A stretch of DNA of 64,000 bases. It comes from Planctomycetota bacterium. Its GTDB lineage: Bacteria > Planctomycetota > Phycisphaerae > WQYP01. This document shows positions 15,880 through 43,730 of the stretch, one piece after another (the stretch's first letter is position 1; each line of letters starts with the position of its first letter). The position numbers and the translations under genes were made by a program. The DNA is taken from the NCBI GenBank assembly GCA_021831565.1, contig JAKBMM010000002.1, positions 39,440-103,439 of the forward strand, read 5' to 3'. The notes below the pieces were generated by a model. It was not told where the DNA came from. It saw nothing but the letters and a program-made list of their open reading frames with translations, and did no database searches.

Positions 15880-16194
15880 ATGGACGCGGCACCGGTCCAA
15901 CTGCACAGCCCTAACGAGATTGCCCGCCAACTGGCGCAGCACGTCCGCACCGAACGTCTCCGCCGCCAATGGAAACAGGAGACGCTGGCCAGGCGTTCGG
16001 GCGTGTCGGTGGCAACCATTCGCCGGTACGAACGTACCGGCCACACGTCGCTTGTGAACCTGCTGAAGCTCTGCCACGCGTTGGGCCGGCTGGATGAGTT
16101 CGCCGGCTTGCTCCAACCGCCACCCGCCACGTCGCTGGCCCAACTCGAATCCCGTGCCACCAAGGTCCGGGGGCGCAAACGAGGTGTGCGATGA
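15880..16194 (+). CDS. hipB: HipB-like HTH (XRE-family) antitoxin
   Basis: HTH segment ETLARRSGVSVATIRRYE. Stop overlaps the hipA start (ATGA). Confidence 0.7.
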   Translation: MDAAPVQLHSPNEIARQLAQHVRTERLRRQWKQETLARRSGVSVATIRRYERTGHTSLVNLLKLCHALGRLDEFAGLLQPPPATSLAQLESRATKVRGRKRGVR

Positions 16195-17441
16195 GGCAAC
16201 TGACGGTCAAACTGCAACGCCGGCCAGGCGACGCTCTGACGGTCGGCACGCTGGCAGAGCATGATCGACACACATACTTCGAGTACGACCCCACATTTCT
16301 CAACACCGGCTTTGAGCTCTCGCCCTTCAAGCTGCCCGCCCGGCCCGGCTTGATCGAACATACCGACCGCGCGTTCGGTCCGCTGCCCGGCGTGTTCGAC
16401 GACTCCCTGCCCGACGGTTGGGGTCTGCTATTGATGGATCGTCACTTCCGCCGCCAGGGTGTCGACCCCATGACGTTGTCCCCGCTCGATCGGCTCGCCC
16501 ACCTCGGCGCCCGCACCATGGGCGCTCTGGTCTACCATCCGCCGTCCCGCCAACTGCCCGAGCGCGACGAGCAACTGATCAATCTCTACGATCTTGGCCG
16601 CAATGCCGAGGATGTGCTCGAAGGCGACGCCGCCGAGGTGCTGCCCGAACTGATGCGGGCTGGCGGGTCGCCAGGCGGCGCCCGCCCCAAGGTACTCGTG
16701 GGCGTCCAGGGCGACCGCATCATCTCGGGCGCAGAGGATCTGCCCGAGAGATTCCTTGGTGGCGGGGGCGAGCATTGGATCGTCAAGTTCGCCGCCAAGG
16801 CGGACGCTCCCGCGGCCGGTCCCGTCGAATACGCGTATAGCCTGATGGCCCGGGCCGCCGGGGCGGACATGCCGCCGACTCGCCTATTCGAGGTCAGGCG
16901 CGGCCGCAGTGTCCGGCGGTACTTTGGCGTCAAACGGTTCGACCGCGCCGCTGAAAACCGGCGCGTTCACATGCACACCTTCGCCAACCTGGTGCACGTG
17001 AACTTCCGCATCCCCGCGACCGACTACGCTGATCTGTTGAAGGTGACGCGGGCGCTGACACGCAACCATGCCGACCTGCTGCGCCTGTTTCGGCTGATGC
17101 TGTTCAACATCGCCGCCCACAACCGCGACGATCACGCCAAGAACTTCGCCTTTACGCTCGACGATCAGACCGGCGAATGGTCGCTCGCCCCCGCCTACGA
17201 CCTGACTTACTCGCCCGGCCCCGGTGGCGAGCACACCACCACCATCCTCGGCGAGGGCCGCCAGCCAACACGCGGCCATTGCTTGAAGCTGGCCGATCAG
17301 TTCGGACTCAAACCCGGCGAAACTCGTCCCATCATCGACCAGGTCAACACCGCCATCAGCCACTGGCGCCGGTTCGCCGAGCAGGCGGGCTGCGCGAAGA
17401 AGATGGTTGTCGCGATCGGCAAGGCAATCGCCGCAATCTAA
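16191..17441 (+). CDS. hipA: HipA-family serine/threonine kinase toxin
   Basis: HipA N- and C-terminal domains. GGARPK ATP-binding motif (SPGGARPKVLV) and catalytic HNRDDHAKNFAF loop. Confidence 0.85.
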   Translation: MRQLTVKLQRRPGDALTVGTLAEHDRHTYFEYDPTFLNTGFELSPFKLPARPGLIEHTDRAFGPLPGVFDDSLPDGWGLLLMDRHFRRQGVDPMTLSPLDRLAHLGARTMGALVYHPPSRQLPERDEQLINLYDLGRNAEDVLEGDAAEVLPELMRAGGSPGGARPKVLVGVQGDRIISGAEDLPERFLGGGGEHWIVKFAAKADAPAAGPVEYAYSLMARAAGADMPPTRLFEVRRGRSVRRYFGVKRFDRAAENRRVHMHTFANLVHVNFRIPATDYADLLKVTRALTRNHADLLRLFRLMLFNIAAHNRDDHAKNFAFTLDDQTGEWSLAPAYDLTYSPGPGGEHTTTILGEGRQPTRGHCLKLADQFGLKPGETRPIIDQVNTAISHWRRFAEQAGCAKKMVVAIGKAIAAI

Positions 17442-17797: not shown

Positions 17798-18787
17798 CTA
17801 CCACTTCGCCTCACGGAGTTTGGAAGCAATTTCCTTGACGTTCGATGGGTCGATATTGGTTTTGGGGATTACCTCCCGCAGGTCGTGGAAAAGGGGACCC
17901 TGGATTGCATAAGGCGAGTCCTTTCTGTACTCCGTTTGCTCGGGGACTCCACAGAAGAAGCGATGGCCAGTTGAGACCTCCCATCCAAGGTCTTTCTTGG
18001 CCGCGTTTATTATGCCGATTATTTTGCTGTCGTATTCGGTTGTTTCGCGCCCGTCGACCAGCGTCTTGGTGAGGCGATCATTGACATATTCCGCGTCATA
18101 AATTGAGTCAACTGCCCAGATGCACGGCACATTTTTTTGTGCATATATTCCTAGAAATTTGTGTTTTCTATAGCCGCGATCTTGCGCATGGAAATAGACG
18201 CCGAATTGCTGGTTAATTTTTACCGTTTCGCTGCACGGAACGATTCGGAGGAGGAATTTCGATTCATCGAACAGCCCCGTGTCACTGCAATAGTCTATAT
18301 AATCTTCCACTAACGCAAGCATCTGCGGCTCGTGTTCCTTGAACATCGACTTAATTTCGTGGCAAATATCCTCGTAGGTGATGTTGCGAAAAACGAGGCT
18401 GGGAACTTGTTTTGCGATTTTGCCCCCCTCTATGGCGGATAACTGTTGTCGTTGTCGGGTTAGCAGGAGAAGTATTTTCTGGGACTCATTTGAAAAGCTA
18501 GTTGCATGCCGGGAGAGTTGGTCTAGGTTGACACCACTGTTGACCTTCGATTCCACAAGAATCTTGAAGCTCCGTTGGATTATGGCGCCATCAGGCACCG
18601 ATTGTTTGTTGCGCGGCTGCTGGTTGACTTCGATTCCCACAACTATTTCCTCCCCGCAAAGCTTGGTTAGCAGATTCGACAGGTGCTGCGGGGAATAATC
18701 GTATATGCGAGCGAGGAGTTGGAGCGTGTTATTTGTGACAGTATTCTCTTGGCCTGAATATCGCGGAAAATAATGGATTTTAGACAC
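17798..18787 (-). CDS. Hypothetical protein (329 aa) in a low-GC islet, with an N-terminal PD-(D/E)xK-like motif (VPDGAII...ILVESKV)
   Basis: Long ATG-initiated ORF with codon usage clearly different from its surroundings. No family recognised beyond the nuclease-like PD...ESK spacing. Confidence 0.6.
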   Translation of the reverse strand: MSKIHYFPRYSGQENTVTNNTLQLLARIYDYSPQHLSNLLTKLCGEEIVVGIEVNQQPRNKQSVPDGAIIQRSFKILVESKVNSGVNLDQLSRHATSFSNESQKILLLLTRQRQQLSAIEGGKIAKQVPSLVFRNITYEDICHEIKSMFKEHEPQMLALVEDYIDYCSDTGLFDESKFLLRIVPCSETVKINQQFGVYFHAQDRGYRKHKFLGIYAQKNVPCIWAVDSIYDAEYVNDRLTKTLVDGRETTEYDSKIIGIINAAKKDLGWEVSTGHRFFCGVPEQTEYRKDSPYAIQGPLFHDLREVIPKTNIDPSNVKEIASKLREAKW

Positions 18788-19280
18788 GTGTGGCTCCTTT
18801 CGCGCTCCCCGTTAAGACGATGTGACTGGGTGCATTGCGGGGACGGCATGCACCTTCACGGGTTATTCTGATGATGGCACCATCATATTTCACTTGCCCC
18901 AAATGCGACTCTAACTGGGATCCCTATTGCCCGCAAGCTTTATGCGCTAATGTTCTGTTAAACCGGCTCCCATCATTTCCGCCAGCGCCTGCGGCGTGGC
19001 GACTTTTTCTCGTCCATCAGCAGCGTGTTTTTATCTGTTGGAGTGTACCCGGTACGGTGAAACCGGAATTTGACCCAACCGCATATAAAACAAGCACTTA
19101 CGGTTTTTTATGCGTAGAACTTCGGATTAAGTTAACGCTTATGGTGAGGACGCCCCGCACTCCCAGGGGCGTCCGAAAAATTACCGCGCCCGTCGCACCG
19201 CGGCGAACCCCGGATAGGCAAGCGGGCTTCGCCCCCCGCGCTTTGGCAAACGCATGGATATAACGTCATTGGCGCCGCAA

Positions 19281-19368
19281 CGGAGAGAGTGGGATTCGAA
19301 CCCACGGTGGGGTCATCCCCCACACACGACTTCCAATCGTGCTCCTTAAGCCGCTCGGACATCTCTCC
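19281..19368 (-). tRNA. tRNA-Ser (anticodon GGA)
   Basis: Minus-strand sequence GGAGAGATGTCCGAGCGG...GTGGGTTCGAATCCCACTCTCTCCG. Perfect 7-bp acceptor stem, T-arm GTGGG-TTCGAAT-CCCAC, long variable arm, anticodon loop TTGGAAG. No encoded CCA. Confidence 0.9.
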
Positions 19369-19398
19369 AGAATCCCGGCGATCCGGGATACCTGTAAA

Positions 19399-20262
19399 CT
19401 ACCGTTCGTCCGAAGGTACGTCAATTTTCTCCCGATTTACCCCGGCGGCGGGCGACCGGGAAGGATCGGGATTCCGCCGGCCGTCGATCCGGCCGATCAG
19501 CCGCAACAGACCGTCGAGGATGGTCAGGGGATGCGGCGGGCAGCCGGGAACGAAAAGATCAACGGGCACAATGGAATCGGCGCCATGGTGGACCTGGGGA
19601 TGATCGCGGTACGGTCCGCCGGAAATGGCGCACGCGCCGATGGCGATGACTATTTTCGGTCCGGGCACGGCATCATAGGTTTGTACAAGGGCGGATTTCA
19701 TGTTCCGGGTAACCGGGCCGGTGATCAACAGACCGTCGGCATGGCGGGGCGAGGCGACAAAATCAATTCCGAAACGTCCCAGATCCCAGCCAATGGTGGT
19801 AAGCACATTGACATCGGCCTCGCAGGCATTGCAGCCGCCGGCCGAGACCACGCGCAATTTCAGCGAGCGGCCCAGGAGTTTGCGGAGTTTATCGTCCAGG
19901 GCCGCGGCGAGCGCCGGCTCGCCGTCGGGGCCTACCAGCAAGTCCGCGCGCCGCCGAACCGCCAGGCGATAATCACGCGAATATTGAATCGCGCCCGTCG
20001 GGCAGGCTTCGGCGCAATCGACGCAGAACAGGCAGCGGCCCAGATCCAGTTCGATGCGGCCGGCGGCGATGGTGATGGCCCGCGTGGGACAGGCCTGGGC
20101 GCACAGGTCGCATGAATCGGGGCACCGGGCGGCATCGAATACGGGCCGGGCACGGAAATGCGGCGCCAGCGCCGGCGGAGCGCCGTCGGGATAGGCCATG
20201 GTCTGATGGCCCTGTTGGAATCGGGCTTTGACAATATCGAACATAAAACGTTCCTTCACCAA
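19399..20262 (-). CDS. Fused 2x[4Fe-4S] ferredoxin (NuoI/HycF-like) + NuoB/HycG-like small subunit of a complex-I / group-4-hydrogenase-like module
   Basis: N-terminal CPDSCDLCAQACP and CLFCVDCAEACP. NuoB-like part has GGCNACE (hydrogenase-type CxxC), IGACAISGGPY and PGCPP proximal-cluster ligands. Confidence 0.8.
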   Translation of the reverse strand: MVKERFMFDIVKARFQQGHQTMAYPDGAPPALAPHFRARPVFDAARCPDSCDLCAQACPTRAITIAAGRIELDLGRCLFCVDCAEACPTGAIQYSRDYRLAVRRRADLLVGPDGEPALAAALDDKLRKLLGRSLKLRVVSAGGCNACEADVNVLTTIGWDLGRFGIDFVASPRHADGLLITGPVTRNMKSALVQTYDAVPGPKIVIAIGACAISGGPYRDHPQVHHGADSIVPVDLFVPGCPPHPLTILDGLLRLIGRIDGRRNPDPSRSPAAGVNREKIDVPSDER

Positions 20263-20268
20263 TCCGAA

Positions 20269-21786
20269 TTATAGATCGTGACCGCAGTAAGAAAGACTAA
20301 AACTCTTATTGCAGAGCGGGAAATCGGAAATTTGCCCGCCGCGCATCGCCAGGGCCAGCCCCATCCAGTTATGGAACGACGGATCAACCACTTTATAACG
20401 CTCGAAGCGGCCGGCGGCGTCGGTCAACGCCAGATGGCATATTTCGCCGCGCCACCCTTCCACCAATGCTACGGCCAGATGATCGGGCGCCAAATTTCCC
20501 ACCGGGGAGCTTATGGTTCCGGGCGGGAGGGATCGAAGCTGTGTCCGGACAAAGTCCAGGGATCGCTGAATTTCCAACCAGCGGACATAAGCGCGGGCGA
20601 AGACATCGCCGCCGTCCCAGGAAGAAACGGGGATATGTATAAACCGGAATAAGCCGGAGGGATGGTCCTGCCGGGCGTCGCGGGTAAGTCCGCAGGCGCG
20701 GGCCACCGGTCCGACCATGCCCAGTTCAACGACCGCGCGGCGCGTCACCGGGCCGATGCCCTCGAAGCGGGCCATCACCGAGGACGAATTCCAGAGCAAT
20801 TCGACGGCCTGGCGGGTCTGCCGGCCGCAAATATCCAGTTTCGCCAGCAGATCGTTCACGGTACAAGTGGCCGGATCAAAACGCACGCCACCCGGTCGAA
20901 TCAGTCCGCGTCCGAACCGGCTGCCGCAAAGAGCGGCCGTCATGTTCAGGAATTCACCGCGCAGGCGTCCGCAATAAGAGGCGGTGGGAAGAAAGCCCAC
21001 GTCGCCGCTGAGCGCCCCCAGGTCTCCCACGTGATTGGCCAACCTTTCCAGTTCCAGGGCGATGCCGCGAATGCTCTGCGCCCGCGGCGACTTCTGTTTG
21101 CGGGCCAACGCTTCGAGCACCTGGCAGTAAGCGGTGGCGTGTCCGATGGTGGTGTCGCCGGCGAGCGTTTCGGCGTAATGGATGGTGCGATGATTCGGAC
21201 CGCCGAGCAGTGCTTGCTCCACTCCTCGATGCTGGTATCCCAGCGCCATCTCCAGGTGAAACACAACTTCTCCGTGGCACTGGAAGCGGAAATGTCCCGG
21301 CTCAATGACGCCCGCGTGGACCGGTCCCACGGCCACCTCGTGCACTTCCTCCCCCCGCACCTGGTAGAAATCCATCACTCCCGGCGGCGCGACGCGATCG
21401 TTCCCGGGCCGGCCCGATGGAAACAATGGCGGATGAAAACGGAGCGGTTTGAGCCAGGGATGTCCGACGATATCCAAACCACACTGTTCGGCGATTTCCC
21501 GTTCAAAGAGATGTACCTGCGGACACCGGGGCGTTAAAGAAGGGTAGTGCCGGCCCGCCAGCGTGGAAGCGACCCGGAGAATGGATTGGGTATCGTCCGC
21601 CAGAACCACATACAGGCGCAGGCGATCCGGTGCTTCGAGCGAACCAAACAGGCTTGCCACCCGCCGGCCCGTGCGTACCGCATCCAGAATGACTTGCTGG
21701 AAGTTGTCCAGGGCCAGGTCGGGAATCAAACGACGGCTGATGGCGCGTCCGGCGCCGAGCAGGGGTAAAGAGTCGGCCTGATTCAT
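20269..21786 (-). CDS. Fused NuoC-like + NuoD/[NiFe]-large-subunit-like protein lacking all Ni-Fe-ligating cysteines (Ehr-type)
   Basis: NuoC motif FEREIAEQCGLDIVGHP; NuoD-like GPVHAGVIEPGHFRF...HRGVEQ. No CxxC anywhere; the C-terminus has DPSFHNW where hydrogenases have DPCxxC. Confidence 0.8.
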   Translation of the reverse strand: MNQADSLPLLGAGRAISRRLIPDLALDNFQQVILDAVRTGRRVASLFGSLEAPDRLRLYVVLADDTQSILRVASTLAGRHYPSLTPRCPQVHLFEREIAEQCGLDIVGHPWLKPLRFHPPLFPSGRPGNDRVAPPGVMDFYQVRGEEVHEVAVGPVHAGVIEPGHFRFQCHGEVVFHLEMALGYQHRGVEQALLGGPNHRTIHYAETLAGDTTIGHATAYCQVLEALARKQKSPRAQSIRGIALELERLANHVGDLGALSGDVGFLPTASYCGRLRGEFLNMTAALCGSRFGRGLIRPGGVRFDPATCTVNDLLAKLDICGRQTRQAVELLWNSSSVMARFEGIGPVTRRAVVELGMVGPVARACGLTRDARQDHPSGLFRFIHIPVSSWDGGDVFARAYVRWLEIQRSLDFVRTQLRSLPPGTISSPVGNLAPDHLAVALVEGWRGEICHLALTDAAGRFERYKVVDPSFHNWMGLALAMRGGQISDFPLCNKSFSLSYCGHDL

Positions 21787-23216
21787 GGCTTGGCTCCCAG
21801 ATATCGGCTGGCCTGGTGCAAAAGGTCCCGCAGCGGCGGCGGCAGATACAGCCCCAGCAACAATACCATCAGCAGAGCACCCAGCGCCGGCAGACCACTC
21901 AGCAGGCCATCGCGGTAATTGTTCCGCGCGGCGGCTACGGGCGCCCGGCCCAGCACGGCGGCGAGCACGGTTCGCCCCATTCCCAGGAAAATCACCAGCA
22001 GCAGAAACAGAAACGCCGCGCCGATCAGGAAATGCCCGGCGGCAAAGGCGCCGTTAAGAATCATGAACTCACTGATAAACGGGCCGAACGGAGGCGATCC
22101 GGTGATGGCCAGAAAACCCAGCATAAACACCGTGCCCGAGAGAGGCAGCCGTCGCATGGCGCCGTGCACCTGCGGTATGGTTTTGCCGCCGTAGGCCCGG
22201 TCGATGTTGCCGACGGAAAGAAACAGCGATCCCTTGGTCAGGCCGTTGTTGATCACGTGCAGCATGGCGCCCAGCAGAGCGATACCGCCGATTCCCAGTC
22301 CCAGCGCAAGAATTCCCATGTGTTCCACACTGGAATAGGCGAGCATCCGCTTGAGGTCCTTCTGGCCGATCATAAATATCGCCGCGAAAAGCATGGATAA
22401 AAGCCCCAGAAATATCAGGAGCCTGGAGGCATAAGCGCCATCGCCGGCGGCATACAGGATGTGCTCGGATCGCACCACCATAAGAAAAGCGCTGCTGATG
22501 AGCGCTCCGGAAAACATGGCCGAAACCGGAGCCGGGCTTTCGCCATGGGCGTCCGGCAGCCAGGAGTGCATCGGGGCCAGGCCCATTTTGGTTCCATAGC
22601 CGACCAGCAGCAGGACAAATCCGGCCTGAAGCCAGACCTTGTTGAGCCGGGGCGCCTGGCGAAGCAGGTCGATGATTTTCAGGGAAGGCGTCATTCCCCG
22701 GCTCACGGCGGAGTAAGCCACGAAAAATGATCCGAGCAAGGCCAGAGCGATGCCCACGGAGCAGATCAGGAGATATTTCCAGGTGGCTTCGATGGACTGC
22801 GGCGTGCGGTTGAAATATATCAAAGGCGCGGAGCTAAGGGTGGTGGCTTCCATGGCCACCCACATCAGGCCGAGGTTGTCCGTGCAGATGACCAGGGTCA
22901 TGGCGCCCAGAAACAGCAGGAAGCACGAGCAGAAGACGCGATTGGCATGATCGGCGCGGGAGCACAGGTATCCCGCCAAATAAAAAGAACACAGCAGGAA
23001 CAACACGCTCACCAGAAGCAGCACCACGCGCCCGGGCGGATCGATCTCCAGCCAGCCCCCGCGCGCGCCGCCGCCATATCCGGCCAGAATGGCCAGGACC
23101 AGGCCCAGGTGGGCGATCGCCACGGGCGGCAGGAGCCAGGGCCGCCGGCGGTTGGAGGGCAGCAGCGCCGCCAGGGCGGCGGCGAGAGGACATAGAATAA
23201 TAAGTGCAATGTACAT
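21783..23216 (-). CDS. NuoN/NuoM/MrpD-like antiporter-type membrane subunit (HyfF-like)
   Basis: 477 aa, 14 TM. Conserved WLPDAHGESPAPVSA and LAYSSVEHMG motifs. Start overlaps the previous gene by 4 nt. Confidence 0.8.
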   Translation of the reverse strand: MYIALIILCPLAAALAALLPSNRRRPWLLPPVAIAHLGLVLAILAGYGGGARGGWLEIDPPGRVVLLLVSVLFLLCSFYLAGYLCSRADHANRVFCSCFLLFLGAMTLVICTDNLGLMWVAMEATTLSSAPLIYFNRTPQSIEATWKYLLICSVGIALALLGSFFVAYSAVSRGMTPSLKIIDLLRQAPRLNKVWLQAGFVLLLVGYGTKMGLAPMHSWLPDAHGESPAPVSAMFSGALISSAFLMVVRSEHILYAAGDGAYASRLLIFLGLLSMLFAAIFMIGQKDLKRMLAYSSVEHMGILALGLGIGGIALLGAMLHVINNGLTKGSLFLSVGNIDRAYGGKTIPQVHGAMRRLPLSGTVFMLGFLAITGSPPFGPFISEFMILNGAFAAGHFLIGAAFLFLLLVIFLGMGRTVLAAVLGRAPVAAARNNYRDGLLSGLPALGALLMVLLLGLYLPPPLRDLLHQASRYLGAKP

Positions 23217-23223: not shown

Positions 23224-23865
23224 TTATCCCTTCAAGGAAGAAAGCCGCCGGGTGTCCAGCGAAGCGAACTCGCGATTGATGTGATGCATGATGATGCTGA
23301 TGACAAAAATGCCGACAAACAGGTCCAGCAGTACGCCCAGCTCCACCAGGGACGGGATCGCGCCGAGCAGAAGCAGACCGAAAACGAAAATGCCGTTTTC
23401 CAGCAGCAGAAAACCGATGGTTTGCGTAAGGGCCTTCACCCGCGTGGTCAAAAGCAGAAAGCCGGTGAAAAGCATGGAGATGGAAGTGGGAATCACCAAC
23501 AGACCCAGAGGGCTTGCGGAAGGCGTGATCCGTCCGGCCAGCACCAGGGCGGCGCCGGTGGCGGCGGCGCCCAGAAGAATGCAGGGCATGAATCCGATGA
23601 TCGGTTCCACCTCCCGTTTGACGTGGGCGTCGCGCAGGGCCTTGAGCAGCATATTGGGAATCACGACGCCTTTGAGCACAACCGTCATCAAGGCCATGAA
23701 CAGCGGTACGAATTGCGCCTCCCGGAGCACCAGGGGAGGCAGCAATCCCAGCAAGATGCCCTGGAGCGCCGCGGCGTGTATCAAAGCCTTCATGCGGCCG
23801 GCGCCCAGGACAAACAGGTTGATCAGAATCACCAGTACAAAAATGGCGTTGAGGGTCATCATCAT
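23224..23865 (-). CDS. HyfE-like small membrane subunit of the complex
   Basis: 213 aa, about 6 TM; size and hydropathy are those of hydrogenase-4 component E. 7-nt gap to the neighbouring genes. Confidence 0.6.
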   Translation of the reverse strand: MMMTLNAIFVLVILINLFVLGAGRMKALIHAAALQGILLGLLPPLVLREAQFVPLFMALMTVVLKGVVIPNMLLKALRDAHVKREVEPIIGFMPCILLGAAATGAALVLAGRITPSASPLGLLVIPTSISMLFTGFLLLTTRVKALTQTIGFLLLENGIFVFGLLLLGAIPSLVELGVLLDLFVGIFVISIIMHHINREFASLDTRRLSSLKG

Positions 23866-23871: not shown

Positions 23872-24810
23872 TCACCGCAGCAGCAAAAGAAATCCAAAAC
23901 CGTTCAAAAGACAGGCGGCAACCAGAAGCGTCGGCACCAGTCGAAGCTGCAGCCGGGCCATGATGGATTCCACCACGCCAATCACACCCGCCACCGCCAG
24001 CAGGCCGGGTATGGTCATCGCCCAGTTTTCCCAGATCCATCCCTGATTCAGCGGGAGCAGCACATGGAGCAGCAGGGCGCCGAGGACCAGAAGTTTGACG
24101 GCTGATCCGTAAATCTGCGCCGCCAGCAGGGGGCCGCTGTTGTCCAGCACCAGCACCTCATGTATCATTGTCAATTCGAGATGTGTATTTGGATCATCAA
24201 TGGGCAGACGGGAGGTCTCCGCCAGGAGCACCACGAACAATCCGAACGCCGTGAGCACCAGCGCCGCCGCGGCCGTGGAATCAATAGCGACATGTGTCGC
24301 GGGCGCCAGCATGGTGCTCAGGCTCAAGGTTCCGGAGAGTTTCACCAGCACCAGCAGCGCCAGAAACAACGCCGGTTCCGAAAAGGAGGCGAAGGTGAGT
24401 TCCCGGGCGGCCCCCATCCCCTCAAACGATGAGCCGGTATCCAGCGCCGCCAGAATGGTGAAAAATCTCCCCAGCGCCAGCAGGTAAGCAAACAGGATCA
24501 GATCGCCGGTGAAATGCACGGGAGCCGCGGTCGGTCCCAGCGGAACAAGCAACCCCGCCAGCAAGACGCTGGCCAGGGAAATCAGCGGCGCGGCCGAAAA
24601 CACCCAGGTTGTGGTGGAACTCAGCACGACGCCTTTGCGCATGAGCCGAAGCAGATCGTAGTAAGTCTGGAAAAGCGGCGGGCCGACGCGCCCGGCGAAC
24701 CAGGCCTTGGTTTTGTTGATAACGCCCGGCAGCAATGGCGGCAGAAGCACCAGCAGCAGGATCTGAAAAGCAATCGAAATAAGCGTATTCATAAAGTCAA
24801 TAGCTCGCAA
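23872..24810 (-). CDS. NuoH/HycD/HyfC-like membrane subunit
   Basis: 312 aa with 8 TM. Conserved IDDPNTHLELTMIHEVLVLDNSGP-type loop (the E/D-rich quinone-channel loop region). Confidence 0.75.
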   Translation of the reverse strand: MRAIDFMNTLISIAFQILLLVLLPPLLPGVINKTKAWFAGRVGPPLFQTYYDLLRLMRKGVVLSSTTTWVFSAAPLISLASVLLAGLLVPLGPTAAPVHFTGDLILFAYLLALGRFFTILAALDTGSSFEGMGAARELTFASFSEPALFLALLVLVKLSGTLSLSTMLAPATHVAIDSTAAAALVLTAFGLFVVLLAETSRLPIDDPNTHLELTMIHEVLVLDNSGPLLAAQIYGSAVKLLVLGALLLHVLLPLNQGWIWENWAMTIPGLLAVAGVIGVVESIMARLQLRLVPTLLVAACLLNGFGFLLLLR

Positions 24811-24828: not shown

Positions 24829-26796
24829 TCAAACCAGCAACAGCACCAGAACAATCAGCAAGACGTAAAGCAGATACAACTGCACCGTACCGCTCTGAAA
24901 AATCCTGGCGGATTTAAGGGTATTCCCGGCCTTGTGCAACGCCGGTTGCACAACGCTCTCCAGCAGCGGGTCCGGGGTATGAGAGGCATAGTTCGATGGT
25001 TGGGGAAAAACGCCCTGAATCCGCGGTTGTCGCCGGGTGGACCACACAAGCCAGCGCAGCATTTCTGTGAGCGCTTGCGTGAGCGATGAGCCGGTGTACT
25101 GCATGCGCTGGTTGGGAGAGACGTAACCACAACCCCATGTCCGGCCGGGGTTACGGATCCGGGCGTGCCGCCAGGGTATGGCCAGCACCCCGATCAGTCC
25201 GCCCGCGAAGAACAGGGCCAGGGCCACAGCGGTAAAACAGCCCAGGGGAATAATGGTTTCCAGGGGGATGGGCGCGTTCCAAGGCGTCCAGGCTCGAATC
25301 GCATGATCCAGAAGTCCTGTGAACAACTGCGGAAAAATGCCGACGATCGCACAGCCGGCGGCCAGCAGCAGCATGGGCGCCAGCATCATGGACCCCGGCT
25401 CATGGGCGTTGGCGGCCGCCGCGGTTCGCGGTTGGCCGGCGAATGATGTCGCCGTGAACTTGATAAACGTCGTCATGGCCAAAGCCCCGACCATGGCCAA
25501 CAGGGGAACGGCCAGTGCGGCCCAGCCGGCGGGTGTTCCCCCCTGGAGCGTTTTGAATAATCCCAGGTAAATGAACAGTTCGCTGACAAAGCCATTCCAT
25601 GGCGGCAGAGCCGAGATGGAGGCCGCTCCAACCAGCATCAGCCAGAAAAGCGTCGGCATTCGTCGGGCCAGGCCGCCCAAAGCCTCCAGATCGCGGGCGC
25701 CCGTGCCGTGTATGATTCCGCCGGCGCCCATGAACAGGAGCGGTTTGAACAGGCTATGATTGAACATGTGAAGCAGCGATCCCCCCAGTCCCAGCGCCAC
25801 CCAAAGCGGGTGTTGCAGGGATAGTCCCAACACGGCCAGCCCCAGACCCGTCATGAGAATGCCGATATTTTCAATGCTGCTGTAGGCCAGAAGCCGCTTG
25901 CAGTCCCTCTGCGCACAGGCCCATACAATTCCCAGGAAAGCCGAGAGCATTCCACAACTGAGCAGCACCGCTCCCCACCAGATCGGTGGATGACCCGCGA
26001 TGGCGGCCACCCGCACGATGCCGTAAACGCCCATGTTCAGCAGCACACCGGAAAACAGCGCCGATACGTGGCTAGGGGCATTGGCGTGCGCCCCCGGCAG
26101 CCAGACATGCAGCGGGACCAGACCGGCCTTGCAGCCAAATCCCACCAGCCCCAGAATAAACAGAGCCGCCAGCATCGCTCTCGGCAGGTGCGTCAGGCCG
26201 GTCGGCCAGAGATTTAGCGAACCGGACCCGACTCGGAGCAATACGAAAAAGGCGATCAGACAGAGTGTGGCAATATGGGTGGCGATGAGGTAGACCCATC
26301 CCGCCTGTTGCACTTGCGGCCGACGGTCCTCGGTTATCAGAAGAAAGTAGCCCGCCATCGCCATGATTTCCCAGGCGATGAGGAATTCCACGCTGTTGGC
26401 GGCGAGAACCACCAGGATCATTCCGGCGGTCGTGATTCCCCAGAATAAACGGAGTTTGCGTCCATCCGCGGGATGCCGCCGCTGCGGCCAATAGCCCAGG
26501 CCATAGACGGACCCCAGGGCGGAAATCAGAAAAATGGGAAGTAAAAACCAGGCGCTTAAGTCATCCAGTTGCAAGGCGGGCTTGCCGATCGGAAAGCGGT
26601 ATGTCGTGGCCCAATGCAACGGAGCGGCCGCCGCTAGATCATGGCGCAACAGTACCGCGATGCCGAGGGCGCTGGCCAGCACATGGATGGCCATCGATAG
26701 TACCGGCCCGCGCGCGCTGCGCCGGCCGGACACCAGCGAAGGCAAGCCGCTTCCAGCGATCAATAGAGCGGCGAGAATCAGAAGAAACATGGTCAT
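24829..26796 (-). CDS. NuoL/MrpA/HyfB-like antiporter-type subunit, paralog 1
   Basis: Start taken at MTMFLLI (ATG 26796; GGAG RBS 9 nt upstream). Conserved HVWLPGAHANAPSHVSALFSG and KRLLAYSSIENIG motifs. Confidence 0.8.
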   Translation of the reverse strand: MTMFLLILAALLIAGSGLPSLVSGRRSARGPVLSMAIHVLASALGIAVLLRHDLAAAAPLHWATTYRFPIGKPALQLDDLSAWFLLPIFLISALGSVYGLGYWPQRRHPADGRKLRLFWGITTAGMILVVLAANSVEFLIAWEIMAMAGYFLLITEDRRPQVQQAGWVYLIATHIATLCLIAFFVLLRVGSGSLNLWPTGLTHLPRAMLAALFILGLVGFGCKAGLVPLHVWLPGAHANAPSHVSALFSGVLLNMGVYGIVRVAAIAGHPPIWWGAVLLSCGMLSAFLGIVWACAQRDCKRLLAYSSIENIGILMTGLGLAVLGLSLQHPLWVALGLGGSLLHMFNHSLFKPLLFMGAGGIIHGTGARDLEALGGLARRMPTLFWLMLVGAASISALPPWNGFVSELFIYLGLFKTLQGGTPAGWAALAVPLLAMVGALAMTTFIKFTATSFAGQPRTAAAANAHEPGSMMLAPMLLLAAGCAIVGIFPQLFTGLLDHAIRAWTPWNAPIPLETIIPLGCFTAVALALFFAGGLIGVLAIPWRHARIRNPGRTWGCGYVSPNQRMQYTGSSLTQALTEMLRWLVWSTRRQPRIQGVFPQPSNYASHTPDPLLESVVQPALHKAGNTLKSARIFQSGTVQLYLLYVLLIVLVLLLV

Positions 26797-26840: not shown

Positions 26841-28823
26841 TTAAAACAGGATCTTCCAGAGCGCTCCCAACGGGAGCGTAATCAGAAGCAGAAAAAGTAA
26901 CATCAAAAGCATATAAAAAAGATAGCTCTGAACGTTGCCCCGCTGGAACACGCGGCCATTGGCCAGCACGGATCGCAAACGCCGCCACCCGGGTTCCAGA
27001 ACGTTTTTCAGGACCGGATCATCCACATGCGAATGGAATTGACCGGGACCGGCAAAGAGGCCCGATAGCCGCGGTTCGCGACGGCGCATGCGCAGCAGCG
27101 GCCGCAATGTACCCAGCAGCATTTGTGCCAGGGAGGAGGCGGTGTACTGCATACGGCTGGAAGACCCGGCGTAACCGCAATTCCACGTCGGTTGGGTCCG
27201 CGCCTGGCGCGCCAGGAACCGCCGGAGAAGGAAAGCGACCAGGAGGACCGCGGCCAGAGACAGATTCATTATGGTCAAGGCGGTTAGCGGAGTCAGCGCA
27301 ACCAGCGCCGGCAGTCCCCGGTGGGCCCAGGCGCTGGTGGTTCGGTTCAACGGCGTTGCCACCAGCGTGGGCGCCATTCCGATCAACAGACATCCGCCGG
27401 CGAGAATCATCATCGGCAGCCAAAACGCCGGGCCGGCTTCGCGCACCCGGCGCAGCTTGGTGCGGGCTGTTCCAAGAAAGACCGCGCCGCAGACCTTGGT
27501 GAAGCACGCCGCCGCCAGCGCCCCGACCATGGCCAGCACTCCGGCAGCCAGAGCCAGTATCGGCAGCACGGTCATTGTTCGCAGAAGCCCCACGTAAATG
27601 AAAAGTTCACTGACAAATCCATTCAGCGGCGGCAGGCCGCAGATGGCGATGGCTCCGAGCAAAAACAGGTTGGAAGTAAGCGGCATGGATTGGGCCAGCC
27701 CGCCGAGCCGATCGATTTTCCGCGTTCCGGCGGCATGGATGACACTGCCCGCGGAAAGGAACAAAAGCGACTTGAACAATCCGTGATTCCAGACGTGCAG
27801 AAGACATCCGGCCATTCCCAGGATGATCCATATCGGCTGATGTTTTGCCTCGCCGATCAGCGCCAGTCCCAGTCCCAACAGGATGATTCCGATGTTTTCC
27901 ACACTGTGATACGCCAGGAGTTTTTTCAGATCGTGCTGACCGATCGCCCATAACACACCGAGAAATGCGCTAAGTGCGCCGAGCGTCATAACCAGAATGC
28001 CCCAGCCGAGCGGTCTGGCCGGAAGCAGCGGCAACACGCGCAGCAGCCCGAAAATGCCCATCTTAATTGTGGTTCCCGATAACGTTGCGGATACATGACT
28101 CGGAGCGTTCGCGTGGGCTTCGGGCAGCCAGAAATGCAGCGGCACCATGCCGGCCTTAACGCCGAAGGCCCCCAGGGCCAGTAGAAATAACGCCGTCTGC
28201 AATCCCATACCGGCCTGTTCCGGCGAAAGCGGACGCAGAAGAAATGATCCCGACGCCATACGCAGCAAGGCAAAAAAGGCGAACAGCAGCAAGGTGCTTA
28301 TGTGTGCCGCCGCCAGATAAACCCAGGCGGCCTGGCGGGAGTCGGGCTTGAAGTCTTCCGTGGCTATAAGGAAAAACGTGCTGATCGCCATGAGTTCCCA
28401 CGCAAACAGAAAGCAAATGCCGTTGTTGCTCAACGTAATCATCGCCATGCTGGAAATGAGTATTCCGTACCAGAATCGCAGTTTCCGGCCGGTCCGGGGA
28501 TGATGACTTTGTTTCCAGTAACCGATGCCATAGAGCGAACATAGGCCGCCGATAAGAAAAATGGGGACCAGAAAAAATGCCGCCAGCGGATCAAGCCGGA
28601 GGTTGGTGGTCATGACCGGCGCCGGTCCGGGACCGGCCAGAGATTCAACCGGGGCGCCAAGCAGTATGGCCATAGCGGCCGTGAGGCCGCACAGCGCGGC
28701 CAGGACGGCCACCAACACCGAAAGCCAATGTCCCCAATTGCGGCGGCGATTGCCCACCATACCTATCAGGCCGCTGGCGGCAAAGCCGCCCGCGCCCAGC
28801 AATGTCATGGTCAGCCACATCAC
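26841..28823 (-). CDS. NuoL/MrpA/HyfB-like antiporter-type subunit, paralog 2
   Basis: 660 aa. HFWLPEAHANAPSHVSATLSG and KKLLAYHSVENIG. First gene of the structural part of the operon. Confidence 0.8.
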   Translation of the reverse strand: MMWLTMTLLGAGGFAASGLIGMVGNRRRNWGHWLSVLVAVLAALCGLTAAMAILLGAPVESLAGPGPAPVMTTNLRLDPLAAFFLVPIFLIGGLCSLYGIGYWKQSHHPRTGRKLRFWYGILISSMAMITLSNNGICFLFAWELMAISTFFLIATEDFKPDSRQAAWVYLAAAHISTLLLFAFFALLRMASGSFLLRPLSPEQAGMGLQTALFLLALGAFGVKAGMVPLHFWLPEAHANAPSHVSATLSGTTIKMGIFGLLRVLPLLPARPLGWGILVMTLGALSAFLGVLWAIGQHDLKKLLAYHSVENIGIILLGLGLALIGEAKHQPIWIILGMAGCLLHVWNHGLFKSLLFLSAGSVIHAAGTRKIDRLGGLAQSMPLTSNLFLLGAIAICGLPPLNGFVSELFIYVGLLRTMTVLPILALAAGVLAMVGALAAACFTKVCGAVFLGTARTKLRRVREAGPAFWLPMMILAGGCLLIGMAPTLVATPLNRTTSAWAHRGLPALVALTPLTALTIMNLSLAAVLLVAFLLRRFLARQARTQPTWNCGYAGSSSRMQYTASSLAQMLLGTLRPLLRMRRREPRLSGLFAGPGQFHSHVDDPVLKNVLEPGWRRLRSVLANGRVFQRGNVQSYLFYMLLMLLFLLLITLPLGALWKILF

Positions 28824-29548
28824 TCGCCTTGCCCCGGTGAGTTGCCATGGGCCGCCGCAGGACCTTGCCCTGTCGTCAAAATACCGGACTCCGCCCGTCG
28901 CAGGGATTCCAGAACCTCTTCCCGGGCGGCCTGCTCCAGCACGACCTTCTTGAATCCCGGATCACGCAGGACAAAACCCAGCCGCGAAAGCAATTGCAGA
29001 TGCGCCCGCACAGTGGGACTGATAAGCGTAAAGAGAGTACTTACCGGCTGCCCGTCGAGTGCCCCAAAGTCCACGGGCTTTTCCAGGAAACACAGCACGA
29101 TCATGGGACCGGACAGGTGCAACACGATGGGATTGCGGACATGCGGAATCGCGATTCCTTCTCCAATGCCGGTCGAGCCGAGAGCTTCCCGGGCCAGCAA
29201 CACCTGATAGAGAAATTCGCGGTCCACTTCCTCCGGCAGCCGCATGATTTCCACCACGCTGCGCAGCACGGAACTTTTATCGACGCCGCTGATCCGGTAG
29301 TAGATGCCGCCATCGCGCAGCGCATCGGTTAGCGATGGCGCCGGCGTTTCACCTCCCTCCGGTTCAAGGAAGATTTCCGGGGAAACATGAATTTTTCGTG
29401 AGGTGGACCACTCAAGCAGCTCAGCCCGGTTGAATCGGTATTGCTCGTTAACCTGGTAGGCGGGAATGATCCCCTGCTTAATCCAGCGGTACACGCTTTT
29501 TTCCGATACATTAAGTAGTCGAGCGGCATCGCGGACGGTGAGTTTCAT
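28820..29548 (-). CDS. HTH (excisionase/MerR-like HTH_17) + PTS EIIA(Ntr/Fru type-2) two-domain protein, translationally coupled to the complex operon
   Basis: MKLTVRDAARLLNVSEKSVYRWIKQG HTH; EIIA-2 domain with phosphorylatable His in GEGIAIPHVRNP. Its stop overlaps the next start (ATGA). ATG 29548 with AAGGG RBS. Confidence 0.75.
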   Translation of the reverse strand: MKLTVRDAARLLNVSEKSVYRWIKQGIIPAYQVNEQYRFNRAELLEWSTSRKIHVSPEIFLEPEGGETPAPSLTDALRDGGIYYRISGVDKSSVLRSVVEIMRLPEEVDREFLYQVLLAREALGSTGIGEGIAIPHVRNPIVLHLSGPMIVLCFLEKPVDFGALDGQPVSTLFTLISPTVRAHLQLLSRLGFVLRDPGFKKVVLEQAAREEVLESLRRAESGILTTGQGPAAAHGNSPGQGE

Positions 29549-29588
29549 ATCATGCCCTTCATACAACCATTGTGTCGCATTATTACCC

Positions 29589-29617
29589 ACTATAAAACAA
29601 ATGTCCTAAAAAGTCAA
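29589..29617 (-). promoter_or_regulatory. Near-consensus sigma70 promoter TTGACT-N17-TATAGT driving the HTH-EIIA/complex operon
   Basis: On the minus strand: TTGACT (plus coordinates 29612..29617), 17-nt spacer, TATAGT (29589..29594), about 40 nt upstream of ATG 29548. Confidence 0.5.
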
Positions 29618-29640
29618 TCGGATGGCAAAAAAAAGGACAT

Positions 29641-41003: not shown

Positions 41004-43730
41004 ATGGATCAGATGCGTCCGGATCCCGATGCTCTTCTGGACCGGATCAACGCCGAGGAAGCGAAAAAAAAACGCGGAAAACTCAAAGTGTTTTTCGGCG
41101 CCGCCCCCGGTGTGGGCAAAACCTACGCCATGCTGGAAGAAGCGCGGCGGCAGGCCGAGCAGGGGCAAGACGTCCTGATCGGGTACGCCGAGCCGCACAT
41201 TCGTCCCGACACCGAGATGCTGTTGCTGGGCCTGCGAATTCTGCCCTATAAAATGGTCGAGTACAAAGGCGTCACGCTCAAGGAATTTGATCTGGACGCC
41301 GCCCTGGCGCGCCGGCCGGCGCTGATTTGCGTGGACGAATTGGCGCATTCCAACGCCCCGGGCCTGCGCCACGCCAAGCGTTATCAGGACGTTCTGGAAC
41401 TGCTCGGGGCGGGGCTGGATGTATGGACCACCTTGAACGTCCAGCATTTGGAATCCGTCCAGGACATCGTGGAGCGCGTTTCCGGCGTGAAGGTGCGCGA
41501 GACCCTGCCCGACTGGGTGCTGGAGCAGGCCGACGATATCCAACTTGTTGATATATCCCCGGAAAAACTTATTGAGCGGATCGCCGAGGGGAAAATATAC
41601 ACCCATCACTCTGTGGATTATCTGACGCGGCAATTTTTCAACCGGGGAAATCTCGCCGCGCTGCGGGAACTCGCGCTGCGGCGCCTGGCGGATCGCGTGG
41701 ACGTGCAGATGGAAACGTTCCGGCGCCAACACGCGGTCGCGGAATCGTGGCCCGCGGCGGAACGCATCCTGGTGTGCATCGGTCCAAGCCCGTTTTCCGC
41801 CCGGCTGGTTCGCGCGGCGCGCCGCATGGCCATGGCGTTTCGAACGAACTGGATCGCTCTCTATGTCGAAACGCCGGGAACGGCGCGACTGCCCGCCCCT
41901 GCCCGCGAACGGGCCTTCGCCACCCTGCGGCTGGCCGAAGAGCTCGGCGGGCAAGCGGTTACGCTCAGCGGCGACGATCCGGCGCAGGAGATACTCGCCT
42001 ACGCCCGCGGGAAAAACGTCGCCCGGATTATTGTCGGCAAGCCGCTGCGCCGCCGGAGCGCGCCTTTCCAGCGCTCCCTGGTGGACCAGTTGATCCGCCG
42101 GGCGGGGCCTATCGACATATATATCATTAGAGATTCATCCGAACCAGTGCTTCCCGAGGGACCCGCCGGCCGGGCGCCGCGCCCGCGACCGGCCGGCTAT
42201 GGCTGGGCCGTGGCGATCACGGCGTTGGCAACCATCCTCGGCGCGGGGCTTTATCATGGCCTGCATCTGTCCAACAGCAACGTGCTGATGCTCGATCTGC
42301 TGGGCGTTTTGTGGGTGGCGATACGGTTCGGCCGCGGCCCGGCCGCGCTGGCTTCGGTATTGAGCGTGGCCGCGTTTGACTATACCGTTGTTCCTCCCTA
42401 CTACAGTTTCGCCGTCAGCGACACGCAATATGGCATCACCTTCGCCGTCATGCTGGTCGCGGCGCTGCTGCTGAGCACTCTGACCGATCGCCTGCACCGG
42501 CAGTCCGAGGCCGCGCGTCATCGCGAGCGGCGGACCGCGGCTCTGCTGGCGCTGTCGCGCGACCTCGCCGGAACGAGCGAAAAAGAAAAAAGCATGCAAA
42601 CCGCCGTACGCCACATCTCGCAAATGTTCCGCTGCGCCGCGGCGGTGCTCCTGCCGGGCCCAGACTCTCCGGGGCGGCCGGGACTCGTCGTCGCGGCCGG
42701 CGCCGGCCCGGCGCCGGGGGATGAAAAAGAAATGAGTGTGGCCCAATGGGTTTTTGAACACAATCAACCCGCCGGCAGAACCACTTGCACCTTGCCGTCC
42801 GCCGCGGGAATGTACGTACCGCTGCGGATCGGTCCGAAAACCAGCGGGGTGCTGGCGCTGACCGGTGAAGCGGTCGAACACTTTTGCGACCCCGACCACC
42901 GGCACTTTATGGAGGCTTTCGCCAATCAGACGGCGCTGGCCCTGGAGCGGGCGAATCTGGCCGAAGAGACGCGCCGCGCCTGGCGACGCGTGGAGACGGA
43001 ATCCATCCGCAACACGCTTCTTTCGGGTGTTTCCCATGATCTGCGCACGCCGCTGGCGGTCATTACCGGATCGGCGACGGCCTTGCTGGAGGGCGGCCTG
43101 GATCGCGATTCGCCCGCCGGCGCGCAAATGCTCGCGGCCATTGTGCAAGAGGCGGAGCGCATGGAGCGGCTGATCGCCAACCTGCTCGACATGAGCCGGC
43201 TGGAATCCGGAGCCGTGCAACCGCGGCTGGAAATTTTCCCGCTTAACGAACTGGTGGCATCCGCCCTGGCCCGGCTCAAACGCCGGGTGGCCGGCCGAGA
43301 CATTCATATTGCGATCCCGGCGGACATGCCCCTGTTGCGAGTGGACGGGCTTCTCTTCGAGCAGGCGCTGACGAATCTTATCGAGAACGCCGTGGAGCAT
43401 ACGCCGCCGGAGACTCCCCTGGAAATCAGCGCCGCCGCGTCCGGGCGGGGGGCCACGATTCAAGTCGCCGACCGGGGACCGGGGCTGCCGGACGAACAGC
43501 GCGAGCGGATATTTGAAAAATTCTTTCGGGCTCCGGCGGCGCGCGGTCGGCGCGGCGCGGGATTGGGATTGGCGCTGGTGCGGGCCATCGTTCAGATGCA
43601 CGCGGGATCCGTCACGGCCGACAACCGGCCGGGCGGCGGCGCGGAATTTACCATTACCCTGCCGCCAACTTGTACGTATGCGGACGGCGGGGATATTCTC
43701 CAGAATGAAGATTCCGGGACAAACGCATGA
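41004..43730 (+). CDS. kdpD: Sensor histidine kinase KdpD (KdpD N-terminal/Usp domain, TM, GAF-like, HisKA, HATPase)
   Basis: KVFFGAAPGVGKTYAML N-terminal P-loop. H-box VSHDLRTPL; G-boxes DRGPGLP and GLGLAL. Confidence 0.85.
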   Translation: MDQMRPDPDALLDRINAEEAKKKRGKLKVFFGAAPGVGKTYAMLEEARRQAEQGQDVLIGYAEPHIRPDTEMLLLGLRILPYKMVEYKGVTLKEFDLDAALARRPALICVDELAHSNAPGLRHAKRYQDVLELLGAGLDVWTTLNVQHLESVQDIVERVSGVKVRETLPDWVLEQADDIQLVDISPEKLIERIAEGKIYTHHSVDYLTRQFFNRGNLAALRELALRRLADRVDVQMETFRRQHAVAESWPAAERILVCIGPSPFSARLVRAARRMAMAFRTNWIALYVETPGTARLPAPARERAFATLRLAEELGGQAVTLSGDDPAQEILAYARGKNVARIIVGKPLRRRSAPFQRSLVDQLIRRAGPIDIYIIRDSSEPVLPEGPAGRAPRPRPAGYGWAVAITALATILGAGLYHGLHLSNSNVLMLDLLGVLWVAIRFGRGPAALASVLSVAAFDYTVVPPYYSFAVSDTQYGITFAVMLVAALLLSTLTDRLHRQSEAARHRERRTAALLALSRDLAGTSEKEKSMQTAVRHISQMFRCAAAVLLPGPDSPGRPGLVVAAGAGPAPGDEKEMSVAQWVFEHNQPAGRTTCTLPSAAGMYVPLRIGPKTSGVLALTGEAVEHFCDPDHRHFMEAFANQTALALERANLAEETRRAWRRVETESIRNTLLSGVSHDLRTPLAVITGSATALLEGGLDRDSPAGAQMLAAIVQEAERMERLIANLLDMSRLESGAVQPRLEIFPLNELVASALARLKRRVAGRDIHIAIPADMPLLRVDGLLFEQALTNLIENAVEHTPPETPLEISAAASGRGATIQVADRGPGLPDEQRERIFEKFFRAPAARGRRGAGLGLALVRAIVQMHAGSVTADNRPGGGAEFTITLPPTCTYADGGDILQNEDSGTNA

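Follow-up and report, generated by a model that had tools for sequence, protein, structure and literature searches.

The described systems that come closest to the regulator considered here belong to the phosphotransferase system (PTS). PtsN (EIIA-Ntr) acts on TrkA and on KdpD, the latter being a classical target of it in Proteobacteria, and to our knowledge the regulatory "nitrogen" PTS has been studied almost only in that phylum and only as a regulator by protein-protein contact. In Firmicutes, the PRD-containing PTS regulators MtlR, LicR and ManR carry a C-terminal EIIA(Mtl)-like domain. Ehr (Ech-hydrogenase-related) complexes, in turn, are widespread relatives of complex I and of group-4 hydrogenases that lack the nickel-iron (NiFe) site, and we know of no substrate or physiological role established for them. 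The present analysis concerns a gene, informally designated ehrR, in a 64,000-nt stretch of a Planctomycetota bacterium genome (GenBank assembly GCA_021831565.1, contig JAKBMM010000002.1; hereafter the window), which joins an HTH_17 domain to a PtsN-like EIIA domain and stands at the head of what, by its gene content, is an Ehr operon. The interpretation favoured here, to which we give slightly more than even weight, is that EhrR is a one-component autoregulator of ehr, probably a repressor, whose DNA binding would be set by phosphorylation of His136 by HPr or NPr. An earlier note on this DNA had proposed, from the histidine of a GIAIPH motif, that the module is tied to carbon/nitrogen PTS signalling, and, to the extent that sequence evidence can show, the present analysis supports that interpretation.

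Both domains of EhrR lie well above their Pfam gathering cutoffs (27 bits in either case), with HTH_17 (PF12728) at 61 bits (E 1.3e-16) and PTS_EIIA_2 (PF00359) at 83.7 bits (E 1.7e-23) over profile positions 13-142 of 144, so that the domain composition given in the earlier note holds. The N-terminus further matches the "excisionase family" HTH domain TIGR01764 (49.7 versus 28.8 bits) and, weakly, a MerR profile (22.5 bits against a cutoff of 28.2). For the C-terminal half the nearest NCBIfam family is PtsN TIGR01419, whose equivalog cutoff of 138.7 bits is well above the 66.8 bits obtained, and a further PtsN equivalog, NF008145, gives 57.8 bits against a cutoff of 221. The top PDB sequence matches by phmmer are all PtsN/EIIA-Ntr (Burkholderia 3urr and 4gqx, Neisseria 2a0j and E. 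coli 1a6j; E 2e-15 to 7e-13). An AlphaFold2 model (mean predicted local distance difference test score, pLDDT, of 71, with higher values over the HTH domain) shows a winged helix of beta-alpha-alpha-beta-beta-alpha topology ahead of an EIIA fold. PtsN structures once more lead the Foldseek matches of this model (target-normalised TM-scores 0.69-0.80, 28-34% identity), with Band 3/SLC4 cytoplasmic domains also returned. GIAIPH occupies residues 131-136, and alignment to E. coli PtsN pairs His136 with His73, the known PtsN phosphorylation site, Arg120 with Arg57, and His183 (in RAHL) with His120; the supposition that this histidine is that of the EIIA-2 active site was thus confirmed by an exact pairing. 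His136 and Arg120 are invariant in all 79 non-redundant orthologues, the His120-equivalent is also kept, and the active-site His and Arg are retained in family members at 37-41% identity. The EIIA domain retains every residue required for phosphotransfer, and its phosphorylation by HPr or NPr is predicted from homology.

The likeness to PtsN, the closest sequence relative, extends to the EIIA-2 fold, to an identical GxGIAIPH active-site loop and to a presumed role in regulation, not sugar transport. However, PtsN is a single domain of ~150-160 aa without HTH_17, its gene lies in the context rpoN-hpf-ptsN whereas that of EhrR lies between recN and ehrA, and its output is to protein partners where the predicted output of EhrR is DNA binding. 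In MtlR, LicR and ManR, as in EhrR, a DNA-binding domain and a PF00359 EIIA-2 domain share one polypeptide, and PTS phosphorylation controls transcription there, as is proposed for EhrR. In contrast to these proteins of ~650-700 aa, EhrR possesses no PRD, EIIB-like domain or Mga-type HTH (Pfam gave no PRD or EIIB match at E <= 0.01, and the linker from HTH to EIIA is merely 35 residues), its predicted target is an energy-converting membrane complex and not a sugar operon, and its hosts mostly lack PTS transporters. Since PtsN cutoffs, architecture and context all failed and PRD domains are missing, EhrR is, on these comparisons, a member of neither family.

The seven genes that follow ehrR, in the order ehrR-ehrA1-ehrA2-ehrB-ehrC-ehrD-ehrL-ehrS with recN upstream of the regulator, are by profile and motif content an Ehr operon without a NiFe site. 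When EhrL is aligned to HycE (7z0s_E) and MbhL (6cfw_L), the NiFe motif R-x-C-G-I-C-x-x-x-H is replaced by L-A-G-D-T-T-I-G-H, the L1 motif CGICgfaH having become AGDTTIGH, and the C-terminal CxxC is absent from EhrL. The earlier note had spoken of a NuoL-like respiratory-type complex; NuoL-like genes do follow, and the complex is more exactly an Ehr complex lacking the NiFe cysteines. HyfR and FhlA, encoded with the E. coli hyf and hyc operons, resemble EhrR in accompanying an operon of the group-4-hydrogenase type, but are formate-responsive sigma-54 enhancer-binding proteins that have no domain homologous to it. The subunit set agrees with that of Geobacter sulfurreducens, where EhrA-1, A-2, B, C, D, L and S have been described and Ehr subunit abundance varies with the electron donor (PMC7894505), and with that of Margulisbacteria and relatives, which have the same NuoCD and NuoIB fusions (PMC6349859, Supplementary Note 4), including in both cases the NiFe-less NuoC-NuoD large subunit and the NuoI-NuoB small subunit. 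Unlike the operon of the window, neither description mentions a regulator gene. No terminator was found after ehrS in the scan made for one; a tRNA-Ser gene lies there.

The association of this regulator with Ehr recurs well beyond the window. A word-indexed search returned more than 7,700 homologues, the best 120 of which all combine HTH_17 with PTS_EIIA_2 at 71-83% identity besides a 100%-identical cluster, and when 1.84 billion cluster representatives were searched exhaustively with HMMER, 454 matched at E <= 1e-30, nearly all of them over their full length and of 220-240 aa. Contigs that are 100% identical occur in the metagenome-assembled genome (MAG) assemblies GCA_027343245.1, GCA_027429175.1 and GCA_021801965.1 and in one JGI metagenome, and public records name the homologues "PTS sugar transporter subunit IIA" or "PTS system nitrogen regulatory IIA component". 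Gene context was compared in 80 loci (given L numbers below) at 62-79% identity, one genome per species and chosen by similarity to the regulator, from Planctomycetota, Myxococcota, Acidobacteriota (Thermoanaerobaculia), Latescibacterota, Krumholzibacteriia, Zixibacteria, Methylomirabilota/Rokubacteria, Binatia, Verrucomicrobiota, Lentisphaeria, Kiritimatiellae, Spirochaetota, Desulfobacterota-type "Deltaproteobacteria", Goldbacteria and others. In tblastn with the Ehr proteins of the window, virtually every locus that was long enough had the whole operon directly 3' of the regulator and in the same orientation, the regulator being the first gene of the Ehr operon in essentially all of the ~78 informative loci, which span more than 15 phyla; the exceptions are two short contigs and an orphan copy, L084. 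It again heads the Ehr operon in two distant representatives (37% and 39% identity), so the gene is present in orthologous operons, as the earlier interpretation would have it. The 39%-identical copy (L086, 2595-11118) has the permuted order regulator-ehrL-ehrS-ehrA-ehrB-ehrC-ehrD. The orphan regulator of L084 (10001-10687) has a good operator and no Ehr genes within 10 kb, and the genes after it encode a transporter (Vut_1), a GreA-like factor and a PAD_porph protein resembling agmatine deiminase.

When 5,000 flanking open reading frames were clustered all against all, no other conserved neighbour appeared, and the conserved module therefore consists of exactly the regulator and Ehr; additional conserved partners, such as formate dehydrogenase or maturation genes, were sought in the same clustering and did not emerge. 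On a Variovorax plasmid (L090, NZ_LR594673.1, 519103-542596) two tandem Ehr-like operons, with EhrL 42% identical, have no HTH-EIIA gene, and a CopG-family gene lies upstream of the first. PLSDB plasmids encode no full-length regulator homologue and yield EIIA-domain matches only. Because such Ehr-like operons do without it, the regulator belongs to one large Ehr clade, within which the coupling is the rule. The notion that no gene of the operon is better conserved than the regulator was rejected as ascertainment bias: its conservation in the 80 loci appears high because these were selected by similarity to it, and in independently found relatives it ranks last or close to last in conservation, with long-range identities of 37-39% against 48-60% for EhrL and EhrS.

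The promoter TTGACT-N17-TATAGT that had been placed directly upstream of ehrR is present at 29617-29589 and agrees with the consensus at 10 of 12 positions; an overlapping candidate, AGGACA-N17-AATAAT (29607-29579), is shifted from it by 10 nt, and the 1.3-kb region contains 2 promoter-like sites compared with 0.5 +/- 0.9 in shuffles. A 48-nt matrix, iteratively refined from the 200 nt upstream of the orthologues, has the consensus TTGACAT-N4-GGACAT-N6-TATAAT-GTCC-N6-TGTCC (consensus operator sequence TTGACATnnnnGGACATnnnnnnTATAATGTCCnnnnnnTGTCC). Its half-sites form a nested palindrome, GACA-N6-GACA-N12-TGTC-N6-TGTC, which is superimposed on a TTGACA-N17-TATAAT promoter in such a way that the half-sites overlap the -35, the spacer, the end of the -10 and +1. 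The operator generally begins 75-77 nt 5' of the start codon, and 58 upstream regions outscore the shuffled-control maximum. The same pattern was obtained by an untrained test, in which [TG]GAC[AT] and [AT]GTC[CA] 5-mers were counted in 79 upstream regions and in shuffles: pairs at exactly 10 bp numbered 37 forward-forward (0.16 expected) and 26 reverse-reverse (0.22 expected), forward-to-reverse distances clustered at 16-17, 26-27 and 36-37 bp, and at least 3 of the 4 half-sites stood in strict register in 36/79 regions against 0.01 in shuffles.

The array is also almost confined to this promoter. Scanning all loci on both strands (2.7 Mb) with the matrix gave 91 matches of at least 15 bits, 89 of them at the regulator promoter (58 forward, and 31 that are the same sites read in reverse, as expected of a palindromic operator). 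One of the 2 matches elsewhere is a second operator copy (7185, minus strand) in the unusually long, ~330-nt gap between regulator and ehrA of L069, which is consistent with a separate regulated ehr promoter where the genes are uncoupled. Within the window a single match of at least 12 bits occurs on either strand, at 29617 (minus strand) with 26 bits, and no further operator copies that might mark a regulon were found in it. Its upstream pair is good, TTGACT being followed 10 bp on by GGACAT, with GAC and GACA invariant in nine close relatives. In the distant members the recognition helix reads SEKQIHQWVDS or DESQVTRWINE in place of SEKS/TV/IYRWIKQ and the GGACA array is absent, a loss that is expected if the HTH domain reads these sites. 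The upstream region of L086 has CGAC(A/G) repeats ~10 bp apart instead of GGACA, and in the Myxococcota loci L011, L014, L015, L020 and L037 TCTCAT repeats lie near a TTGA-N17-GAATACT promoter upstream of the regulator. Arrays of short repeats at ~10-bp phasing are bound by Xis and BldC, and a phased-repeat target read by an HTH_17 winged helix is what is predicted for EhrR as well as described for lambda Xis, TorI and BldC (RacA, 5i41, shows sequence similarity at the weakest level). Those proteins are single-domain and without a sensor, whereas EhrR has EIIA and its repeats form two inverted pairs over a promoter. From its conservation at the regulator's own promoter, we infer that the array is the target of EhrR.

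The start of the gene is, by comparison with orthologues, ATG 29548, because all 79 non-redundant orthologues share the N-terminus M[KQ]L[TS]V[KR]D at this position and the HTH_17 profile match begins at residue 3 counted from it; relatives have AAGGAG or GGAG where the window has GAAGGG. The alternative GTG (29590-29588) sits within the TATAGT hexamer and is ruled out by this N-terminal conservation, in agreement with the preference for ATG 29548 already expressed in the earlier note. That note had also described an ATGA overlap with the first NuoL-like gene. An overlap exists, but its sequence is GTGA/TGATG (junction GAG-TGA-TG, regulator stop TGA 28822-28820) and no literal ATGA occurs at this junction in the window; ehrA-1 may start at GTG 28823, with a 4-nt GTGA overlap, or at ATG 28820, with a 1-nt overlap, as called in public assemblies. 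A literal ATGA, homologous to the GTGA at 28823, is found in the two closest relatives (L005 and L006), and in most loci the ehrA start codon lies -4 to +50 nt from the regulator stop.

Table 1. Coordinates of the regulator gene, its promoter region and the Ehr operon in the window.
Feature	Position	Strand	Basis or remark
Regulator gene (informal "EhrR")	28820..29548	-	242 aa, HTH_17 + EIIA(Ntr)-like; operon gene 1
HTH_17 domain (excisionase/MerR-like winged helix), residues 3-47	29408..29542	-	Pfam 61 bits; AlphaFold2 pLDDT 82-89
PTS_EIIA_2 domain, residues 87-217, PtsN-like	28898..29290	-	Pfam 83.7 bits; PtsN structures best PDB matches
His136 codon CAT, predicted phospho-acceptor	29141..29143	-	Pairs with E. 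coli PtsN His73
Shine-Dalgarno-like GAAGGG	29555..29560	-	6 nt 5' of ATG 29548
GTGA stop/start overlap, regulator/ehrA-1	28820..28823	-	ATGA at homologous place in L005 and L006
Promoter/operator region, best 48-nt match to family-wide matrix	29570..29617	-	26.0 bits; shuffle maximum 11.8
TTGACT, -35 of candidate 1 and half-site F1 (GAC 29615-29613)	29612..29617	-	GAC invariant in 9 Tepidisphaerales-type upstream regions
AGGACAT, half-site F2, 10 bp from F1; -35 of candidate 2	29601..29607	-	GACA invariant in the same 9 regions
TATAGT, -10 of candidate 1, 17-nt spacer from TTGACT	29589..29594	-	Candidate 1: 10/12 consensus
AATAAT, -10 of candidate 2, 17-nt spacer from AGGACA	29579..29584	-	Homologous to ATAATG -10 of close relatives
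ehrA-1, HyfB/NuoL-like antiporter-type subunit	26841..28823	-	HyfB NF005086, 543 bits
ehrA-2, second HyfB/NuoL-like subunit	24829..26796	-	Profile matches; start per identical public contig
ehrB, NuoH/HycD-like	23872..24810	-	NADHdh, 105.8 bits
ehrC, HyfE-like	23224..23865	-	NF008556, E 3.7e-19
ehrD, HyfF/NuoN-like	21783..23216	-	Pfam and NCBIfam profiles
ehrL, NuoC-NuoD-type large subunit without NiFe ligands	20269..21786	-	Pfam; alignment to 7z0s_E and 6cfw_L
ehrS, NuoI-like 2x[4Fe-4S] domain fused to NuoB-like domain	19399..20262	-	All Cys ligands intact
tRNA-Ser(GGA), downstream operon boundary	19280..19369	-	30 nt after ehrS

These observations can be assembled into a model of ehr regulation. 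This model proposes that the whole operon is transcribed, regulator first, from a sigma-70-type promoter immediately 5' of ehrR, and that EhrR, as a one-component transcription regulator in which an HTH_17 DNA-binding domain is joined to a PtsN-like EIIA, would occupy the 10-bp-phased GACA/TGTC half-sites as a multimer, probably of four copies arranged as two head-to-tail pairs facing each other, with one HTH_17 domain per half-site. With half-sites lying over the -35, spacer, -10 and start site, bound EhrR would keep RNA polymerase off the promoter, which may result in negative autoregulation of the entire ehr operon. His136 would be reversibly phosphorylated by HPr~P or NPr~P of a transporter-less regulatory PTS, the most likely input because EIIA retains the phosphotransfer residues. 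Its phosphorylation state would report the ratio of phosphoenolpyruvate (PEP) to pyruvate together with the carbon status set via HPr kinase, and phosphorylation would shift oligomerisation or DNA affinity and, through it, the level of the Ehr complex. Operator binding, the repressive sign of the regulation, phosphorylation by HPr or NPr and the choice of the phospho-form that binds DNA are the parts of this model that we infer. Besides the domains, the active-site pairing, the operon position and the operator, which were observed directly, three points favour it: the regulatory EI/HPr chain reported for Planctomycetes (PMC2405797) and the HPr encoded by a Planctomycetota MAG that also has this operon (L053) make a phosphodonor plausible, and the donor-dependent abundance of Ehr subunits in G. 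sulfurreducens (PMC7894505) speaks for conditional expression.

Several observations weigh against this model. PTS partners were sought in the window and 84 loci by scanning six frames for motifs and by tblastn with HPr/NPr queries from E. coli and B. subtilis, and in ~40 genes of the window by Pfam; genes for enzyme I (EI), HPr/NPr and HprK were not found in the 64-kb window, and by motif scan and tblastn HPr was found in one locus alone, L053, so that HPr is genomically unlinked to the operon except for this probably coincidental case. EhrR also scores far under the PtsN equivalog cutoffs (66.8 versus 138.7 bits). In the window itself the downstream half-site pair is degenerate (TAGTGGG and AATGCGA versus ATGTCC and TGTCC) and ~10 extra nt separate the operator halves, a change from which the two overlapping promoter candidates result and owing to which the site may act differently here. 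In Myxococcota the GACA repeats lie ~60 bp further upstream, a position commoner in activation, which suggests a different regulatory logic in that phylum, and Ehr-like operons on plasmids of Proteobacteria lack the regulator gene altogether. The HPr gene of L053, a Planctomycetota MAG with this operon, lies at 20368-20640 (plus strand), 160 nt after ehrS, and encodes both the His15 motif (GFHARP) and the Ser46 motif (GKSVMG). A linkage of HPr to Ehr drawn from this locus was rejected, as it is not recurrent and HPr homologues on other contigs adjoin an acetyltransferase; the adjacency is probably fortuitous.

EhrR could be an autoregulator of ehr independent of the PTS, in which the EIIA-like His/Arg pocket binds a metabolite, an ion or a partner protein. 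The window has no PTS gene and 79/80 loci have none linked, the domain scores far under the PtsN equivalog cutoffs, and EIIA-2 folds serve elsewhere as non-phosphorylated regulatory domains, in keeping with the Band 3/SLC4 cytoplasmic domains returned by Foldseek. However, GxGxAxPH and the Arg57- and His120-equivalents are kept, the His and Arg surviving at 37% identity as would be expected with phosphotransfer, and Planctomycetes and several other host lineages have been reported to possess a regulatory EI/HPr chain without PTS transporters (PMC2405797). A PTS-independent sensor, which sits poorly with the invariant catalytic signature, is considered unlikely. With regard to the sign of regulation, EhrR might instead activate transcription, either by MerR-like remodelling of the promoter or as a class I/II activator on upstream GACA repeats. 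HTH_17 does belong to the MerR-like superfamily (hence the weak MerR match), the Myxococcota repeats do lie upstream of the core promoter, and the -35 TTGACA is itself a half-site at which protein and sigma factor might cooperate. MerR activators, however, bind a palindrome within a 19-20-bp spacer and have a coiled-coil/effector C-terminus, whereas here the spacer is the optimal 17 bp and the C-terminus is EIIA; the -35 and -10 are near consensus, so that an activator seems unneeded, and half-sites over the -10 and +1 form the classical layout for occlusion. Repression is favoured over MerR-type activation because the sites cover a near-consensus promoter with an optimal 17-bp spacer, and activation in either form is judged improbable.

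A further scenario may place the action of EhrR after translation, as a PtsN-like partner-switching regulator or an accessory subunit of Ehr, its HTH serving only for autoregulation or for tethering DNA near the membrane. Since its gene stands first in the operon and GTGA/ATGA overlaps couple its translation to that of the first membrane subunit, the regulator would be made together with the Ehr complex, and phospho-dependent binding is the established mode in which PtsN regulates ion-transport proteins (PMC9239096). However, no sign of contact with any Ehr subunit was seen, the long-range divergence of the regulator is faster than that of EhrL and EhrS and so unlike that of a core subunit, and the linkage of regulator and Ehr is already explained by the conserved operator; we regard such a role, taken alone, as having a low probability. 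Equally low is our estimate for a dual output, in which the state of His136 would both govern repression of the ehr promoter and dock the regulator on the co-translated Ehr complex. Were it true, a regulatory PTS would control how much of an ion-translocating relative of complex I is synthesised, and how active it is, in more than 15 phyla, and the role of Ehr would be tied to signals dealt with by PtsN in Proteobacteria, either PEP/pyruvate (carbon/energy) or K+/ion homeostasis. An excisionase or other mobile-element DNA-binding protein lying fortuitously beside the operon might have been supposed from the match of HTH_17 to the "excisionase family" domain TIGR01764, but there is no adjoining integrase, a full EIIA domain is present, and this reading is ruled out by the constant first place of the gene in Ehr operons across more than 15 phyla; its probability is negligible. 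The model of a repressing autoregulator under PTS control is thus retained as the preferred one.

Other genes of the window are mentioned for completeness. A KdpD sensor kinase and KdpE response regulator are encoded at 41004-44428 (plus strand), 12 kb from the EIIA(Ntr)-like gene, with no kdpFABC seen adjoining, and this proximity to the regulator is probably coincidental. Beyond the tRNA-Ser gene, an orphan gene (17798-18787, minus strand) has a third-position GC of 0.57, against about 0.7-0.8, and no Pfam match, and beyond it lies a HipB/HipA toxin-antitoxin pair (15880-17441, plus strand); together they look like a small island inserted beside tRNA-Ser. A stand-alone NuoC-like (Complex1_30kDa) gene occurs at 56898-57416 (plus strand) with no other nuo genes adjoining, a cobalamin riboswitch at 1081-1312 (minus strand; Rfam RF00174, 107.6 bits), and, at 46426-50647 (plus strand), a hybrid histidine kinase of 1021 aa that has receiver and Hpt domains, after which comes a response regulator bearing an HD-GYP-type HD_5 domain.

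Searches of the open-access full-text literature gave no mention of an HTH-fused EIIA regulator or of a link between Ehr or hyf-type operons and the PTS, and a 2026 review of PTS-Ntr makes no mention of DNA-binding or fused forms of PtsN. A minimal HTH-EIIA(Ntr) regulator dedicated to Ehr thus looks like an undescribed switch that would connect the carbon/energy state of the cell to Ehr, and the present analysis adds the identity of the target complex, the pan-phylum synteny and a defined operator. A dedicated and conserved regulator with a recognisable input and output would give experimenters a direct way to learn when and why Ehr complexes are produced. If the proposed model is true, the nitrogen PTS would extend to DNA in Planctomycetota, Myxococcota, Acidobacteriota, Verrucomicrobiota, Spirochaetota and several candidate phyla, and the targets of the transporter-less PTS in these phyla would be accounted for.

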